The position numbers and the translations under genes are program-made. Positions 6,612 to 30,813 of a stretch of 64,000 nucleotides of DNA are shown piece by piece. The notes under the pieces are model-generated. The model was not told the origin of the DNA. It ran no database searches and worked only from the letters and a program-made list of their open reading frames with translations. Source of the DNA: Pirellulaceae bacterium (GTDB lineage Bacteria; Planctomycetota; Planctomycetia; Pirellulales; Pirellulaceae); NCBI GenBank assembly GCA_020852965.1, contig JADYZV010000052.1:20989-84988 (forward strand), read 5' to 3'. Each line of letters begins with the position of its first letter. Within the stretch, counting starts at the first letter, position 1.

Positions 6612-6975
6612 AACTCTACGAAACTCCAGCAAAAACTACGTTGAATTCATCCCTTTCGCCGCGTTGCGACGGGCCCAATCCCTGAACGACCATTCACCAA
6701 GAATGGGTAGGTTGAGCCAATATCTGGGGCAAGCAAGCGGGCCAGTATCCCGGAATGAACAGTTTTTCACAAGTGCTAATGAGAGTTTGAGGCGTCGAGA
6801 GCAATGATCGGAACGCCGAGTTCTAGGTTGGTTGCACGCGTCCCCTCGTTTCAAACTTCACACTTCAAACTTCCAACTTCACACCCCTGGCACCTATGAG
6901 ACCTAAAGGAGCTATGCGACAATAGTCGCTTGGAATACAGGAATTTTGTCAGTTTTTCCCCTCAGGCAGCCCCGC

Positions 6976-8799
6976 ATGCGCAGAAGCGACATCCGCAACA
7001 TCGTCATTATCGCTCACGTTGACCACGGCAAGACGTCGCTGGTCGATTGCCTGCTCAAGCAAAGCGGCCAATTCCGTGACTCGCAGCTCCAGGGACACCA
7101 AATCCTGGACAGCAACGATCTGGAACGCGAACGGGGCATTACGATCCTCAGCAAAAACATCGCGCTCCCCTACAAGGGGATCAAGATCAACATTATCGAC
7201 ACGCCCGGTCACGCCGACTTTGGTGGTGAAGTCGAGCGGGTAGTACGCATGGCCGATGGCGCCCTGGTATTGATGGATGCCGCTGAAGGCCCCATGCCCC
7301 AAACTCGCTTTGTGCTCTCCAAGGCGCTCGAAGCAGGGGTGCGGCCTATCGTGGTCATCAACAAGATCGACCGCCCCGACTCGCGAGCCCTCGAAGTGGT
7401 CGATGAAGCGCTCGAACTGCTGATCGATCTCGGTGGCGAGCACTTCATGGATGACTTCGACTACATTTTTACGTCGGCCAAAGAGGGCTATGCGACCCAC
7501 GACCCGAGTGTGCCTGGCACCTCGATGGCACCGCTGCTCGACCTCGTGCTGGAAAAAATCCCTGGCCCCGAAGTCGAGCCGGACGCGCCACTGCAACTAC
7601 TGGTCACCAATCTCGATTGGTCGGAATACGTGGGGCGTATTGGAGTTGGACGCATCCAAGCGGGCACGCTCAAATCCGGCCAACAGATCGATATGGCCAA
7701 GAGTGGCGACCGCGTTGTGCAAGCACAAATCGCCTCGGTCTCGGTCTTTGATCGCTTGGGGCGCACCGAAGTGCCCGAAGCGACGGCTGGTGACATTGCC
7801 GCAATCGTTGGACTTGAGGAGGTCGAGATAGGCGACACGATTTGCGAGCGAGGCATACTGCGCCCGCTTCCACGTTTGACGGTCGACGAACCGACGCTCG
7901 AAATGGTATTCAGTATCAACAGCTCGCCACTGGTAGGCCGCGAAGGCAAATACGTGACCAACCGGCAGCTCCGCACTCGCTTGGAAAAAGAGCTCGAACG
8001 CAACGTCGCCCTGCGCGTGGCTCCGATCGAAGGTGCCGATGGATACGCAGTGCGCGGTCGCGGTGTATTGCACTTAGCGGTCTTGATCGAGACCATGCGC
8101 CGCGAAGGCTTTGAGTTGTCGGTTGGCAAGCCTCGCGTGGTCACTCGCGAAATCGATGGCCAAAAGCAAGAACCCTTCGAAACGCTTAACGTCGAGGTCC
8201 CGCAGGAAAAAGTCGGTCCCGTGATGGAACTGGTCGGCTTGCGTCGTGGTACGCTCGATGCAATGACTCCGCGTGGAAGCTACTGCTTGCTCAAGTTTGA
8301 CATTCCCGCGCGCGGGCTGATCGGCCTTCGCACGCGTTTGCTCAATGCCACGCAAGGCACCGCCGTCATTCACCATCGCTTCAATGGTTACAAAGTGCGT
8401 GAAGGGGAAGTACCCGCTCGTGCCAATGGCGTGCTCGTATCGATGGTCAGTGGCAAAGCCATTCCGTTTGCTCTGTTCGGTTTGCAGGATCGCAGCGATC
8501 TCTTTGTCGCTCCCGGTGATGAAATCTACGAAGGCATGATCGTTGGGGAAAACGCGCGGGAGTCGGACATGGTTGTCAATCCATGTCGCGAGAAGAAACT
8601 GACGAACATCCGTGCCGCCGGCTCGGACGAAAATGTCATTCTCAAGCCGCCTCGTATGCTTTCCCTCGAAGCCGCGTTGGAATATATCGAAGACGATGAG
8701 CTGGTGGAAATTACCCCGCATTCGATTCGCTTGCGCAAAATCGGCCTACGCGAGGCCGATCGTCGGCGCGGTGGCCGCGCCGCTAGCCTAGCTAAATAG
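6976..8799 (+). CDS. typA: Translational GTPase TypA/BipA
   Basis: [36 protein letters not shown] and C-terminal [12 protein letters not shown]...[14 protein letters not shown]. Confidence 0.97.
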
Positions 8800-8824: not shown

Positions 8825-8946
8825 CCCCTACGAGCTTGCCTCGCCGTGATTCTTAGACCCCAACGATCTTGCCTCGCCGTGATTCTTAGACCCCAACGAT
8901 CTTGCCTCGCCGTGATTCTTAAACCCCTACGAGCTTGCCTCGTAGG
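8825..8946. repeat. 33-bp tandem repeat, ~3.7 copies, ending in the palindrome CCTACGAG-CTTGC-CTCGTAGG
   Basis: Unit CCCC(T/A)ACGA(G/T)CTTGCCTCGCCGTGATTCTTAGA, repeated head to tail between the convergent typA and leuA genes. Confidence 0.9.
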
Positions 8947-9017
8947 TGAATCAGTTTTGTACCTAGACCGCGCCCCTACGCGCGCCACCTCCAGTCCTTC
9001 TTCATCGTCCTCACTAC

Positions 9018-10688
9018 CTAACCACTCTCGCTCAGAAGCAAACTGCGATTGATCGCGGCCACCAAACCCAAAATCGACGCTTTGGTAATGGACTTGTGCT
9101 GGCCGACGCCAAACAGTTCTTGCCCATCGGCAGTCTTCACTAATACATAGGCGGCGGCAGAGCTATCGCTGCCCGCCTCCATGGCGTGTTCGTGATAGTC
9201 TTGAATGTCGACCGCCAAACCGAATCGTTCGGTCAAGGCATGGACCAAGGCGTCCAGAGGGCCGGCACCTTGGCCGGTAATCTCCTGCTTGTCACCTTGG
9301 TAGCTGACCGTGAAGCGATGCCGCTCTTGATCTTCGATGTCACAGTCGACAGGTGCGTGCGCGTGATAGATCAGCGTCTGCGTAGGTTTCATGTACGTTT
9401 CGACAAACTTGGCCGCCACATCGCGGGCTGACATCTCTTGGCCTGTCGCATCGGTGACCTTCTGAACGACTTGACTAAAGGCGATTTGCAAGCGGCGTGG
9501 CAGGTGGAAACCCAGTTGGTTCTCGACCAGGTAGGCCACCCCCCCTTTGCCAGACTGAGAATTGACGCGAATGACCGGATCGTATTGTCGACCAATGTCG
9601 ACTGGGTCAATTGTCAAATAGGGAACCTCGAAGCGCTCTTGCCCCGACTCCTTCAACGCCGCAAAACCCTTCTTAATTGCATCTTGGTGTGATCCGGAAA
9701 ATGCGGTGAAGACCAAGTCGCCAGAGTAGGGTGTGCGCTCGTGAACTCTCAATTCCGTGCAGAATTCTGCGATACGGCGGATCTCTTTCAAGTTCGAGAA
9801 ATCGAGTCCCGAATCGACACCTTGCGTCGTCAAGTTTAAAGCCATGGTAACGATATCCAGATTCCCTGTCCGTTCACCATTGCCGAACAGCGTTCCCTCG
9901 ACCCGCTCGCCACCAGCCAACATGCCCAGCTCGGAAGCTGCGATGCCGGTTCCGCGATCGTTGTGAGTATGCAGTGAAATGATCGTCTGCTGTCGATAGT
10001 TGAAGCTACGACAGAACAGTTCAATTTGATCGGCATACACGTTCGGCGTCGTCAATTCGACGGTGGAGGGCAAGTTGATGATCGTCTTGTTGTCCACGGT
10101 AGGCTGCCACACATCGCACACCGCCTCGCAGATCTCGACCGCAAAATCGATTTCGGTTCCCGTGAAACTTTCGGGAGAATACTGGAAGCGGATCTGTCCC
10201 GATCCACGCTCGGCTTTGGCCAGTTCGTCGATCCATCGCGCGCCATCGACGGCCATGCGCACAATATCCGCTTTTTCTGCATGGAAGACCACGCGACGTT
10301 GCAGGGTGGATGTCGAATTGTACAAATGCACAATCGCCGACTTGGCACCGCGTATCGCCTCGAAGGTACGCTCGATTAGTGGTCGGCGAGCTTGGACCAG
10401 AACTTGAATCGTGACGTCGTCCGGAATCAATTGCTGGTCGATCAGTTCGCGGACAAAGGTAAAGTCGGTCTCGGAGGCGGCAGGGAAACCGACTTCGATT
10501 TCCTTGAAGCCGATTTGTAACAGAGTACGAAACAGCTCCATCTTTTTGACAGGTCCCATCGGATTGATTAGCGCCTGATTACCATCGCGCAAATCGACCG
10601 AGCACCAAATCGGAGCCCGCGTCAGAGTCCGGTTGGGCCATGTGCGGTCGGGCAAACTTATCGGCGGAAAGGGGACGTATTTGGCCAT
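9018..10688 (-). CDS. leuA: 2-isopropylmalate synthase (yeast/actinobacterial LeuA type)
   Basis: PIWCSVDLRDGNQAL, EIEVGFP, SLHTHNDRGT, LFGNGERTGN, AFSGSHQDAIKKG and a C-terminal regulatory domain. Confidence 0.96.
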   Translation of the reverse strand: MAKYVPFPPISLPDRTWPNRTLTRAPIWCSVDLRDGNQALINPMGPVKKMELFRTLLQIGFKEIEVGFPAASETDFTFVRELIDQQLIPDDVTIQVLVQARRPLIERTFEAIRGAKSAIVHLYNSTSTLQRRVVFHAEKADIVRMAVDGARWIDELAKAERGSGQIRFQYSPESFTGTEIDFAVEICEAVCDVWQPTVDNKTIINLPSTVELTTPNVYADQIELFCRSFNYRQQTIISLHTHNDRGTGIAASELGMLAGGERVEGTLFGNGERTGNLDIVTMALNLTTQGVDSGLDFSNLKEIRRIAEFCTELRVHERTPYSGDLVFTAFSGSHQDAIKKGFAALKESGQERFEVPYLTIDPVDIGRQYDPVIRVNSQSGKGGVAYLVENQLGFHLPRRLQIAFSQVVQKVTDATGQEMSARDVAAKFVETYMKPTQTLIYHAHAPVDCDIEDQERHRFTVSYQGDKQEITGQGAGPLDALVHALTERFGLAVDIQDYHEHAMEAGSDSSAAAYVLVKTADGQELFGVGQHKSITKASILGLVAAINRSLLLSESG

Positions 10689-10737
10689 GACAGTTCTCGT
10701 GATTGACTGATGAAACGGTGATTTGTGGAAGCCTATT

Positions 10738-10780
10738 AAAACAAAAAACCCTGAAACTCGGCAGTGCGAGTTTCAGGGTT
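10738..10780 (-). terminator. Attenuator terminator upstream of leuA
   Basis: 14-bp perfect stem AACCCTGAAACTCG/CGAGTTTCAGGGTT with a 6-nt loop, followed on the minus strand by TTTTGTTTT; ~50 nt before the leuA ATG. Confidence 0.9.
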
Positions 10781-10825
10781 GGTGTGGATCTTCAATGTTG
10801 GTTTGAAGCGAACGAGACCGTACCC

Positions 10826-10888
10826 CTACCACTCGCTGGCGGCGAGCGTAAGTCGAAGCAAATTGTGGATGCGGTTCGCAGGTGTCAT
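10826..10888 (-). CDS. leuL: leuA leader peptide MTPANRIHNLLRLTLAASEW (alternative upstream ATG at 10924)
   Basis: Translated by hand. Leu codons TTG CTT CGA CTT ACG CTC give 4 Leu in 6 codons. TAG lies 45 nt before the terminator stem. Confidence 0.8.
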   Translation of the reverse strand: MTPANRIHNLLRLTLAASEW

Positions 10889-10949
10889 CGGATTGAGTAT
10901 AACTCGGAAAGGTAGTTGAAGCATTTGACTTGACAACATCAATGACTCC

Positions 10950-10979
10950 AGGATAAACCGTCCCTTAGCCGCCTGTCAA
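10950..10979 (-). promoter_or_regulatory. Sigma70-type promoter of the leu leader
   Basis: Minus strand TTGACA-N18-TATCCT. Confidence 0.6.
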
Positions 10980-11028
10980 TGCTAGTGCAATTTAGGACGT
11001 TTTCCACCCGCATTGGGTTCGCGCAGCT

Positions 11029-11062
11029 TTGGAGTGCGGGAATTTATTACCGCTTTGGCCCT
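11029..11062 (+). repeat. REP-like element TTGGAGT-GCGG..loop..CCGC-TTTGGCC
   Basis: Related copies at 12657-12688 (-) and 43221-43254 (+). Confidence 0.75.
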
Positions 11063-11194
11063 CCCAATAGTCAGCAGTGAGTTGAAACGTCGAGGTATAC
11101 GCCCCGTTCGAATCAAACTTGCTACAGCGCTGCGCGGTTAAACAGAATTTTTCTTCGGCAACGTTTACACGCGACCTGAGAACGAAACGAGCTC

Positions 11195-11740
11195 ATGATC
11201 AAGACATTTGAACAAGCGTACCAATTCGTTATCGACCACAAGGTTTGCACGGTTTTCGGCAGCAAGAACTCGCCCTACCCTTCGTTGTGGGACAACACAG
11301 GACTTTCCGAAAAGAAGCCCAAGGCCGGAGGTTGGAGCCCCAAGGTCGTGGCCGTTTGGGATTGGAAGACTCGCATACCGCAGACCTATCCTGACTCGAT
11401 CTTCTATGGAAAGGTCCCGGGAGGCGATGCAGTGCTCATGGAAATGCAATACTTCCGAAACGTGCATTATCCCGAAGCGTATCAGCCTTTAAGCGAGTTG
11501 GACCCGCTTAGTCAGCAAGTCTACGAGTTCATCCGCTTAGAGCCTGGATTCACCGGCACGCTACGCAAACGAACCCTTGAACGTCTGTCTTGCACGAAGA
11601 GCCAGTTCGAAACAGCGCTGAAGAGGCTGCAAGTAAGTTTGAACATCGTTCGTTCGAATGACCCAAAACTAAAAAATGACTTCTGGCTTCCAATGCGCGA
11701 AGTGCATTTGGATATTGTTCAAGCTACGAAAAAGGATTGA
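11195..11740 (+). CDS. Hypothetical protein, possibly AlkZ-related winged-helix family
   Basis: 181-aa ORF with convincing codon usage. SLW...W.WK..IP..Y...FYGK and a C-terminal HTH-like segment recall AlkZ-related proteins (from memory, not searched). Confidence 0.55.
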   Translation: MIKTFEQAYQFVIDHKVCTVFGSKNSPYPSLWDNTGLSEKKPKAGGWSPKVVAVWDWKTRIPQTYPDSIFYGKVPGGDAVLMEMQYFRNVHYPEAYQPLSELDPLSQQVYEFIRLEPGFTGTLRKRTLERLSCTKSQFETALKRLQVSLNIVRSNDPKLKNDFWLPMREVHLDIVQATKKD

Positions 11741-28190: not shown

Positions 28191-29015
28191 CTAAAATGGC
28201 AATCTGGGACTGTTTTCTAGTGGTGGTTCCGAGCGAGGCTTGTCGGTCGCTTCGCTGGGTATCACTTCAGGCCATTGCCCCGCTTCTAACAACGTTTGAC
28301 GATTGGGAGCGGTGATCAATGGAATCCATGGAGGGCAGCCGTATAGGAACTCTCGCAAATCGCCATTGGGATCGAGCGGAACGCGCGAACCTATGCGCAG
28401 GATGGCGACCGGCTTGCCAAGCTGATCGGCGACCTGCAAAGCGTTGTCCGAAGAAGGGACGTTGTACACGATTTGTGTCTCGGGCGTCGTGTCGGTCGGC
28501 TCGGCAATTTCGCTATCTTCCAAGTAGATCACGCGCGTGACCAAGCCGCCGTCGAGCGCCAAACGCAGGTCCTCTTCGGTCATGACAACTGGGATGGGAA
28601 AGCGATGCTCGCGTCCAGCCGGTGGGTAGATTCGATCGATGATTTCTAAGGTAGGATACAGTTCTTCACCGGGCCGAAACGGAATGTTGGTCACTCGGAA
28701 GCGATACACGCCGGCCACGAGCATCCCGGTGATAACCGGTGCATCGATCGGCTGAAGAAACTGTCCATCGCGGGCGAGTGCAATCTTCAATGCTTTAGGA
28801 CCCGAAAGCGACACGGCCTGGAAGGTCCCCACGCCTCGCGCACCCCGAGCGACTTGGGCTCCGGCGACAGCGCCGGGCGTCTGATTGGCATCCAGGAAAT
28901 AGTGTACGTTGGGTAGAGCTCGCGATTGCGCGGCTACGGTAGAGCAGAGCAGGGGGGGGATCGCCCCTACCAGGCAACACAACTTGACAAAATGCAAAAT
29001 GAGCAACTTGTGCAT
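28191..29015 (-). CDS. Secreted hypothetical protein, paralogous domain shared with the upstream gene
   Basis: Signal-like N-terminus at MHKLL; YRFRVTNIPFRPGEELYPTLE...VTRVIYLED. Confidence 0.75.
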   Translation of the reverse strand: MHKLLILHFVKLCCLVGAIPPLLCSTVAAQSRALPNVHYFLDANQTPGAVAGAQVARGARGVGTFQAVSLSGPKALKIALARDGQFLQPIDAPVITGMLVAGVYRFRVTNIPFRPGEELYPTLEIIDRIYPPAGREHRFPIPVVMTEEDLRLALDGGLVTRVIYLEDSEIAEPTDTTPETQIVYNVPSSDNALQVADQLGKPVAILRIGSRVPLDPNGDLREFLYGCPPWIPLITAPNRQTLLEAGQWPEVIPSEATDKPRSEPPLENSPRLPF

Positions 29016-29340
29016 GTTGGACCTCGGGTAATAGCCACTGTTTAAACAAAAAACTCTGCGCATGAACCCAACCCAGGTTATGCAGTTCGATAAGAAAAAG
29101 CGGTGCGAGAGGCAAAACCTCTCGACCGCCTCACTCATTGAACTTCGCTTGGCTGCTGTCTCGTCTGCATTGCTCTGTATTTTCTCTGCCGAACAGCGTG
29201 CGGTAGGTGTTCGTACGGCAAGTACAGTCACACCGTCGCTGATGGATCGAGCGCGTCTAAACATTGCAAACTGAACCCGCGTGCCACGCTCCGCCCGTCA
29301 GTCAGACCCAAACCAGACGGAGCGCGACGTTTACCATTTT

Positions 29341-30528
29341 CTATTCAGGGGGGCAGTAGGCTGCACCCGAAGCACCCGGTACCGCTTGGCTGCCGCGATT
29401 GTATGCGGGGACGCCAGTAGGAACGCCGGGATGAATATTCCGTTCGTGAATGTTCACGCGACTGACCGGTTGCGGATAGCTTTGGCCAGGCGTTTGACGC
29501 ACGTTGATCTTGACGTTCTTGACAGGATCGGGAATGTTCATCGAAGTGCGATTGCGCATCGTGTGGCTCATCAATCCTGCGGGCGAACCGAGTGGAATGT
29601 GAGGAGGACCAGGCAGTCCAATCGGAGTACCCGTGTAGGTCATGCCATACTCGGGTGCTGTAACACCGGCCACATAGCCAGGCAACGATGCAGGTACGCC
29701 ACCAGGTACCGGGCAGCCATCGGGACCGCACATCATGGGCATGCCACCCATCATGGCCATTCCGCCTTCGCTGACACCGGACAATTCGATGTCTTTATTG
29801 CCGACGCGGACGATGGCTAGGATCGATCCGCGACGATCCGCTTCGACGATTGGGTCGAGGCCTGGTTCGAGTCGATTGCTCACAAGCACATCGACACCTA
29901 CCAGCGCGTCACCTTGGAATTCAGGATCGGGCAGGTAGATAACTTTGGTAACGAAGTTCCCCGACAGGACTTGTTCGAAGTCGTCGGTGGTGAACTGAAC
30001 GGGAATTGCATTGTGAGCCAGGTAGGCTGCTGTGCGAGGATTGCCGTTGGCAACTTCGATCGTTGGGTAGAGCTCTACACCTTCACGACCTTGGATGTTG
30101 GTCAACTTCATACGGTAGATTCCCCCTTGCGGGAATTCGAGCCGGCCTGGGACGTATAGCGGTTCGCTACCGAAGCTACCGTCACCGGCCACATCGTAGA
30201 GAAGCTGCATACCTTCTGGCCGATTGAATAGCACTTGGACTTTGGCACCCAAGCCTCCACCCATCATCATGCCACCCATGCCCGGAGCACCGCCACCGTC
30301 GCCGGCACAGGCCACGCAGCTAGCAGGCACTACGCCCCCCATACCGGGGCCGCCGGGGCCCGTTCCTGGACCACCTTGCATACCAAGTACTCCCGGCCCT
30401 GGACCACCGACACCTGGGCCGGGCTCCAGCAGACGCTGTGCGGGCGGCAGGTTGTGCCTGACCGGAGTGCAGCCAGTAAAGCAGCCACAGGCCACCATGG
30501 CTAGCGTTAGGAAAACACGCATTTTCAT
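29341..30528 (-). CDS. Putative lipoprotein, Gly/Pro-rich, with the shared planctomycete-type domain
   Basis: FTGC lipobox; YRMKLTNIQGREGVELYPTIE...VTKVIYLPD. Confidence 0.75.
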   Translation of the reverse strand: MKMRVFLTLAMVACGCFTGCTPVRHNLPPAQRLLEPGPGVGGPGPGVLGMQGGPGTGPGGPGMGGVVPASCVACAGDGGGAPGMGGMMMGGGLGAKVQVLFNRPEGMQLLYDVAGDGSFGSEPLYVPGRLEFPQGGIYRMKLTNIQGREGVELYPTIEVANGNPRTAAYLAHNAIPVQFTTDDFEQVLSGNFVTKVIYLPDPEFQGDALVGVDVLVSNRLEPGLDPIVEADRRGSILAIVRVGNKDIELSGVSEGGMAMMGGMPMMCGPDGCPVPGGVPASLPGYVAGVTAPEYGMTYTGTPIGLPGPPHIPLGSPAGLMSHTMRNRTSMNIPDPVKNVKINVRQTPGQSYPQPVSRVNIHERNIHPGVPTGVPAYNRGSQAVPGASGAAYCPPE

Positions 30529-30813
30529 GCTCAACCCCCTAAATTTTGGCGAAACGACCGGTTTCGAGTCGGGCGTTCGCCGCCAATCGAAACGTTCCTG
30601 AGTGAGTTTCAAACATGGCAATCGGCCTGGAGTAGATCTCCGGGCTGATTCACCTGGACGTGCCACCGGCCCTGCGCTTAATATCCGCGCTGAGTGTAGG
30701 AGGCATGACCGCTGCTCACGAGGAAACGTAATTTCCGCGCTTGCGCTATGTCCGTGGCTATATGTTCGTCCTAGTAGTACCGTTTTCTTTGATAAATCCG
30801 GCATAACCCGACT

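Follow-up and report, generated by a model that had tools for sequence, protein, structure and literature searches.

A probable leader-peptide transcription attenuator upstream of leuA in a Pirellulaceae bacterium and its planctomycete relatives

The 64,000-nucleotide stretch of DNA analyzed here (referred to as the window) belongs to contig JADYZV010000052.1 of a Pirellulaceae bacterium, a planctomycete that occurs in wastewater and activated-sludge metagenomes. Its minus strand carries leuA (9018-10688), which encodes a long-form 2-isopropylmalate synthase, and the region directly upstream of this gene very probably functions as an attenuator of the ribosome-mediated, leader-peptide type, which would tie transcription of leuA to how much charged tRNA-Leu is available. 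The layout of this attenuator was present at 18 of 19 distinct planctomycete loci (the window and 17 relatives), whose LeuA proteins are 70-94% identical to that of the window. Common to these 18 loci are four features: a promoter-like site, a short leucine-rich open reading frame (ORF), a strong terminator, and an antiterminator with its 5' half lying over the stop codon of the ORF. The leader sequences themselves differ widely.

Elements of the leuA leader and their alternative pairings

The leader begins with a -35-like hexamer, TTGACA (10974-10979), and a -10-like hexamer, TATCCT (10950-10955), which are separated by an 18-nt spacer and were both read from the sequence and found in a consensus scan. 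These hexamers would place the transcription start near position 10943, about 200 nt upstream of leuA. The leader ORF consists of 20 codons (MTPANRIHNLLRLTLAASEW) and runs from an ATG at 10888 to a TAG at 10828-10826. Its four regulatory leucine codons are clustered within six codons (10861-10844), namely UUG (10861-10859), CUU (10858-10856), CUU (10852-10850) and CUC (10846-10844), with a CGA codon between the two CUU codons and an ACG codon before CUC. ORFs with at least four leucines in six codons were obtained in 0.8% of dinucleotide shuffles of the region. Additional in-frame start codons, ATG at 10939 and 10924 and TTG at 10942, are located upstream of the 20-codon ORF, and the two ATGs would yield leaders of 37 and 32 amino acids, respectively, with the frame unchanged. 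The 37-amino acid form is possible because the ATG at 10939 is only 10 nt past the -10 hexamer; the 20-codon form is favoured because the leaders of two relatives (L099 and L100) are equally 20 codons long.

Four segments of the leader RNA can pair in mutually exclusive ways. Segment 1 (CGCUCGC, 10848-10842) overlaps the fourth leucine codon and would serve as the 5' arm of a putative 1:2 anti-antiterminator. Segment 2 (GCGAGUGGUAGGG, 10836-10824), which holds the UAG stop codon of the leader, can pair either with segment 1 or with segment 3. Segment 3 (10780-10766) includes the terminator 5' arm, AACCCUGAAACUCG (10780-10767), and the part of it that pairs with segment 2 is CCCUGAAACUCGC (10778-10766). 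Segment 4 (CGAGUUUCAGGGUU, 10760-10747) is the terminator 3' arm, and a U-tract, U6GU4 (10748-10738), was identified both by reading the sequence and by a terminator scan. The terminator is a perfect 14-bp stem with a 6-nt loop and a folding energy of -22 kcal/mol, and leuA begins 55 nt past it and its U-tract. In the alternative structure, segments 2 and 3 form an antiterminator of 6 bp, 2 mismatches and 5 bp (duplex energy -19.6 kcal/mol), in which GCGAGU..UAGGG (10836-10824) pairs with CCCUG..ACUCGC (10778-10766). This helix encloses a small spacer hairpin, CUUCAA-N7-UUGAAG (10808-10790), whose sequence is not conserved in the relatives. The 1:2 hairpin, with a core of CUCGC/GCGAG, grows to 7 bp in the minimum-free-energy fold (CGCUCGC at 10848-10842 with GCGAGUG at 10836-10830). 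As a whole, the 211-nt leader folds better than its shuffled counterparts (z = -3.0). The original prediction, made from the letters of the window alone, had proposed this promoter, the leucine-clustered ORF, the 1:2 hairpin, the terminator with its U-tract and the two-part antiterminator; each of them was present on the minus strand where it had been placed, the hairpin being longer than proposed.

In the mechanism that we propose, a ribosome would translate the 20-codon leader behind the advancing RNA polymerase. With Leu-tRNA in good supply, the ribosome would reach the UAG inside segment 2 and cover this segment, leaving segment 3 free for segment 4; the 14-bp hairpin and the U-tract would then form, and transcription would end ahead of leuA, near 10743-10738. 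A shortage of Leu-tRNA would make the ribosome stall at UUG or at one of the two CUU codons, covering segment 1 and freeing segment 2. The free segment 2 could pair with segment 3 before segment 4 is made, and the polymerase would read into leuA. If no ribosome is present, segments 1 and 2 would pair and the terminator would form.

Folding of the alternative structures, a check that had been suggested together with the original prediction, was carried out on the nascent RNA, i.e., on the RNA that exists before the terminator 3' arm is made, with the footprint of the ribosome masked. With the footprint on leucine codon 1, 2 or 3, the minimum-free-energy fold was the 2:3 antiterminator, at -24.1 kcal/mol compared with -22 kcal/mol for the terminator. 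With the footprint on the fourth leucine codon (CUC), the start of segment 2 was already covered. A footprint at the stop codon fully masked segment 2, and nothing held segment 3. Thus, the classic leu/trp attenuation geometry that had been claimed for this leader holds for leucine codons 1 to 3, which leave segment 2 free, and does not hold for the fourth.

Conservation of the leader and covariation of the antiterminator

A genome scan with the whole LeuA sequence gave one planctomycete locus among the matches listed (Pirellulaceae, L012), the rest being mostly from other phyla. A metagenome scan with a 61-amino acid, lineage-specific piece of LeuA gave seven usable loci (L081-L086 and L092, the latter a duplicate of L085). 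Protein searches combined with contig look-ups added eleven further distinct loci, including those of Pirellula sp. SH-Sr6A (L101), Aureliella helgolandensis (L102) and a Rubripirellula metagenome-assembled genome (L104); a twelfth (L107) is the same contig as L012.

All 18 leaders contain an ORF of 15-24 codons with at least four leucines in six codons, an outcome with a chance probability of 1.4% per locus, and leucine accounts for 33% of all leader residues. The leader peptides of the relatives include MLNHSRTPELLRLTLASSEW, MSLKDLDLLPLLLLPASRSE, MFNSAVLLTRLLPLVTVLLLVTGE and MKIQLLSNLMALLLRLV, as well as MLLSNLLLLLLANRE, MSRNYSPSLALLILLASGKR, MMVFLLLPFDLLLGLQVRL and MQFHDLLLPILLLQRRHGGR. In the two closest orthologues, the leader also has 20 codons and keeps the LLRLTLA core, while the N-termini have diverged. 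Between close pairs, the non-leucine positions vary freely, and an in-frame indel of 18 nt distinguishes the leader of L082 from that of L083. The leaders favour CUU (26%) and CUA (22%), leucine codons that are rare in the long ORFs of the window (7.8% and 8.9%, respectively). A terminator with a T-run was found at 18 of 18 loci, with energies from -15.7 to -26.4 kcal/mol, and the distance from the leader stop codon to the T-run ranges from 54 to 83 nt.

In five relatives (L084, L085, L104, L106 and L108), the leader ATG lies 6-7 nt past the -10 hexamer. This spacing implies a leaderless mRNA and thereby ties the promoter to the ORF; judged from the sequence, the leader mRNAs of these five loci are probably leaderless. 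At L109, an upstream in-frame ATG likewise lies 6-7 nt past the -10 hexamer.

Alignments of the leaders made with MAFFT misplace segment 2, and RNAalifold predicts no structure on them. Because sequence-only alignment fails, alignment-free tests and a covariance model were used instead. In the alignment-free scan, a 16-nt window was slid from the start of the ORF to the terminator, and its best pairing with the terminator 5' arm was recorded. The best partner overlapped the leader stop codon at 18 of 18 loci, with start offsets of -15 to +1 relative to the stop codon; such an overlap is expected at about 20% per locus, which amounts to approximately 1e-6 over 9 clearly distinct sequence types. 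The leucine runs of the relatives are located 15-45 nt before the stop codon, and segment 2 of every one of the 18 loci pairs back onto the leucine-codon region in folds. Folding of the nascent RNA gave the antiterminator as the minimum-free-energy structure at 16 of 18 loci, L103 and L109 folding otherwise.

The two partner sequences of the antiterminator change together from locus to locus, as seen with GCGAG..GGG/CCC..CUCGC in the window, AGGCUUUGAGGGU/ACCCCGAAGCCU at L012, AAGCGUUAGGGGG/GCCCCGACGCUU at L105 and ACGAGCCGGGG/CCCUGAAGCUCGU at L084. When cognate and swapped partners of nine representatives were compared by permutation, the observed total pairing energy was matched in 30 of 20000 cases. 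The full matrix of cognate and swapped duplexes is blurred, since GGGG/CCCC is common to all and the arm lengths differ, and only the permutation with the representatives is informative. Four sequences served to build a covariance model, which after rebuilding correctly located 13 of the 18 leaders and found nothing upstream of leuA at 79 loci from other phyla. In the alignment to this model, 94% of the cells pair, as compared with 28-47% when the partners are slid, and three pairs are doubly changed. Leucine codons and covarying stems upstream of leuA, whose conservation had been named as a check on the original prediction, were thus found at 18 of 19 planctomycete loci, with compensatory changes in the antiterminator.

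These comparative data refute the notion that a small ORF and a hairpin merely came together by chance in a long intergenic region, and we give that notion practically no credence. The promoter scan by itself would be in line with chance, as it found one site where 0.8 were expected. The TTGACA/TATCCT promoter gains weight only because it is conserved: TTGACN-N17/18-TAnnnT occurs exactly once upstream of the leader ORF at 17 of the 17 loci with enough sequence (window included). On the other side, a leucine cluster that appears in 0.8% (window) or 1.4% (average) of shuffles is found at every locus of the 18, only two convincing hairpin-plus-T-run terminators exist on both strands of the 64-kb window, one of them being that of the leuA leader, and the whole architecture is conserved with covariation.

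RNA contigs, opposing observations and rival explanations

Words from the leader were found in twelve metatranscriptome runs, compared with four for a search that also covered leuA. The leader contigs of X26 (10785-10973, depth 12.9), X28 (10783-10921), X33 (10823-10964) and X35 (10743-10926) do not cross the terminator, and none of these four has a contig over the leuA body. In X35, the contig stops at 10743, where the U6 run has its last U. As contigs from DNA runs cross the leader and terminator at even depth, this pattern is not an assembly effect. It fits a short, terminated leader RNA that outnumbers the full-length mRNA.

The separation of the leader and the leuA body into different RNA contigs, together with an X25 leuA contig that begins at 10716, downstream of the U-tract, could also be read in another way: the leader might be a gene for a small RNA or a small protein, constitutively transcribed and closed by an ordinary terminator, with leuA having its own downstream promoter and with no leucine switch. 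We consider this very unlikely. Contig ends are not transcript ends; a consensus scan between the terminator and leuA revealed no promoter-like site, and the corresponding gap in the relatives is just 19-97 nt. Moreover, the leader always directly adjoins leuA even though the neighbouring genes vary among the relatives, and a conserved, covarying antiterminator over the stop codon would have no role in such a gene.

Several observations weigh against attenuation by a translating ribosome. Full-length equilibrium folds always form the terminator. The attenuation model therefore depends on kinetics; a terminator that wins at equilibrium is what is expected for a kinetic switch, and such folds are no test of one. 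Taken one by one, the 1:2 hairpins do not outperform shuffled sequences (z between +0.1 and -2.6). The antiterminator of L106, L086, L104 and L109 is weak or does not reach significance, and the alignment that displays the covariation was fitted to the structure. The nineteenth locus, L110, whose LeuA is 78% identical, has no leucine-rich ORF or U-tract terminator upstream of leuA (870-1200); all that is seen there is a hairpin of 10 bp, GUUCCCAAGC...GCUUGGGAAC, which no T-run follows. The RNA data consist of assembler contigs, which attest presence and not absence and define transcript ends imprecisely, and X25, X27 and X31 contain pieces of leuA without the leader. Two RNA contigs reach beyond the start that TTGACA/TATCCT would predict, to 10964 and 10973 (20-30 nt further upstream), making the transcription start uncertain. 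An alternative promoter-like sequence, TGGAAA-N16-TAGCAT (11006-10979, minus strand), would place the start near 10972. Finally, the leader ATG lacks a preceding Shine-Dalgarno sequence, both in the window and in the relatives, and in Streptomyces coelicolor, mutations of the leucine codons in the leuA leader did not act as classical attenuation predicts (PMC1262725).

The latter two points bear on a further possibility, that the switch is real but is set by a protein, by uncharged tRNA in the manner of a T-box, or by a small ligand, with the leucine-rich ORF being incidental or modulatory. A precedent is the actinobacterial LEU element (Seliverstov et al. 2005, PMC1262725), which was argued not to be a classical attenuator and for which a protein factor was proposed. 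This element has no terminator, contains a pseudoknot, and has a base stem that pairs the leucine codons with leuA's Shine-Dalgarno box, a structure that suggests translational or protein-mediated control (PMC1262725). Like the planctomycete leader, it precedes a long-form LeuA (about 55% identical) and includes an upstream ORF with a leucine run, for example the actinobacterial MLRGLLLSCRGGGL from our own scan. Unlike it, the planctomycete leader has a canonical terminator with a U-tract. Pairing of the leucine run of the window with the leuA ribosome-binding region amounts to -8.4 kcal/mol over 7 bp in two blocks, interrupted, a figure that comes without a shuffle control. Membership in the LEU element was rejected because the terminator is present and this pairing is weak.

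Other evidence makes a switch that does not depend on the ribosome improbable. A search of Rfam with positions 10500-11300 gave no match to a leader, T-box or riboswitch family, even at E values up to 10, and at the gathering score, there was no match in the window or at 16 related loci; a T-box or riboswitch identity was rejected on this basis. Conserved unpaired nucleotides suggesting a ligand pocket were not found. Beyond the pairing segments, the 18 divergent leaders do keep their leucine codons, their reading frame and a stop codon placed within the antiterminator, and the probably leaderless ORFs of five relatives argue for translation of the ORF. We therefore retain ribosome-mediated attenuation as by far the most probable explanation, in which the leader would be translated, the ribosome and polymerase would move in step, and leuA would respond to leucine.

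Known systems, gene context and significance

The enterobacterial leu attenuator (leuL; Leu_leader, RF00512) and the trp, his, thr and ilv attenuators of E. coli and Salmonella are leader-peptide systems. The planctomycete leader resembles the enterobacterial leu and trp attenuators in having a short ORF with clustered leucine codons, some of them rare, alternative 2:3 and 3:4 pairings and a putative 1:2 pairing that obey a ribosome-position logic, and an intrinsic terminator that closely precedes the first biosynthetic gene. The enterobacterial leu leader also uses rare leucine codons, and the bias of the planctomycete leaders towards CUU and CUA parallels this. However, the planctomycete leader has no sequence or structural similarity to Leu_leader and does not match that family even at E values up to 10; it would control a monocistronic long-form leuA, whereas the enterobacterial one controls the leuABCD operon. 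Further differences from the enterobacterial systems are that the planctomycete stop codon lies inside segment 2, that the antiterminator is a long-range, two-part helix enclosing 40-60 nt, and that the leader lacks a Shine-Dalgarno sequence, with leader mRNAs that are probably leaderless in several relatives.

Leaders of proteobacterial leuA genes were reportedly predicted by comparative analysis by Vitreschak et al. in 2004. Our scan turned up leucine-rich candidates ahead of long-form leuA in Alpha-, Beta- and Gammaproteobacteria, Verrucomicrobiota and Acidobacteriota. Like the planctomycete leader, those of a Verrucomicrobiota locus (L065) and an Acidobacteriota locus (L024) have strong terminators. 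In contrast, most proteobacterial candidates are 230-350 nt from leuA and showed no obvious U-tract terminator in the scan, and none of the leaders from other phyla is picked up by the covariance model built for the planctomycete antiterminator. None of the sampled leucine-rich leaders from other phyla matches an Rfam family.

A Leu-Arg-Leu core (CUN-CGA-CUU) was present in 24 of 78 candidate long-form leuA leaders from several phyla, a count made without phylogenetic control, and the arginine codon was CGA in 19 of these 24. The lineages represented are Alpha- and Gammaproteobacteria, Verrucomicrobiota, Eremiobacterota, Actinomycetota and Clostridia. In the window, the core reads CUU CGA CUU (10858-10850), and at L084 and L085, it reads CUU CGA CUC. 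It is possible, although doubtful, that long-form leuA has carried a Leu-Arg(CGA)-Leu leader sensor since before these phyla diverged, or has spread it by transfer between them. If so, the leader would be an ancient companion of leuA and not a lineage-specific invention. CGA is expected to be a rare arginine codon in the G+C-rich members of this set and, should the pattern hold, might act as an inherent slow codon that makes the leucine sensor more sensitive.

The leuA gene starts with an ATG at 10688, and its 556-amino acid product matches NF002991 (826 bits) and TIGR00970 (747 bits). Its downstream neighbour, typA (6946-8799, plus strand), is convergent, and its upstream neighbour, an AlkZ-related gene (11195-11740, plus strand), is divergent. 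As the next gene downstream is convergent and that upstream is on the opposite strand, leuA is monocistronic. The orientation of the AlkZ-related gene also rules out the hairpin being the terminator of a preceding gene. The other strong canonical terminator of the window is located at 29095-29135 on the minus strand (-23.8 kcal/mol, followed by T5). It follows the stop codon of the ORF at 29341-30804 by about 240 nt, and a likely start at 29014 comes about 80 nt after it. Between typA and leuA, there is a 33-nt tandem repeat (8825-8942, 3.6 copies, 94% matches), the last unit of which is followed by a hairpin, CCUACGAG-CUUGC-CUCGUAGG. The piece at 8923-8960 is multi-copy in metagenomes (depth 87 versus about 5) and is present in RNA contigs with differing flanks. 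The divergent intergenic region between leuA and the AlkZ-like gene contains an element of about 40 nt, TGGAGTGCGGGAATTTATTACCGCTTTGGCCCTCCCA (11025-11071), which occurs once in the window and was not found at the related loci. It is multi-copy in DNA metagenomes (depth 27.6 versus 4.8), and many RNA contigs hold it with unrelated flanks.

Full-text literature searches found no report of attenuators in Planctomycetota, in agreement with the earlier remark that such elements are little studied in this phylum; the only paper found to touch on both subjects deals with how leader genes in general are spaced (PMC4833913). A leuA attenuator has apparently not been described in Planctomycetota before. 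The planctomycete leuA leader is a new, well-supported example of a very well-known class of regulators, and as its mechanism is a textbook one, the gain lies in breadth and not in principle. Very few regulatory RNAs are known from Planctomycetota, to which it adds a well-supported cis-regulator open to experimental tests. Being outside the reach of every Rfam model, it could become the founding member of a new RNA family. Annotation would benefit as well, since the short leader gene is apparently absent from the gene calls, and in at least one relative (L109), the leuA start has been called across the terminator. That called start (1201-1217) lies inside the terminator hairpin of the attenuator, ahead of the T-run at 1211-1217, and is for this reason probably too far upstream. 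Finally, the compartmentation of planctomycete cells has long been debated (PMC6212462, PMC6554331, PMC5394234). Because attenuation of this type requires that the ribosome closely follow the polymerase, the conservation of the attenuator would constitute indirect evidence, from genomes, that transcription and translation are coupled in Pirellulaceae.

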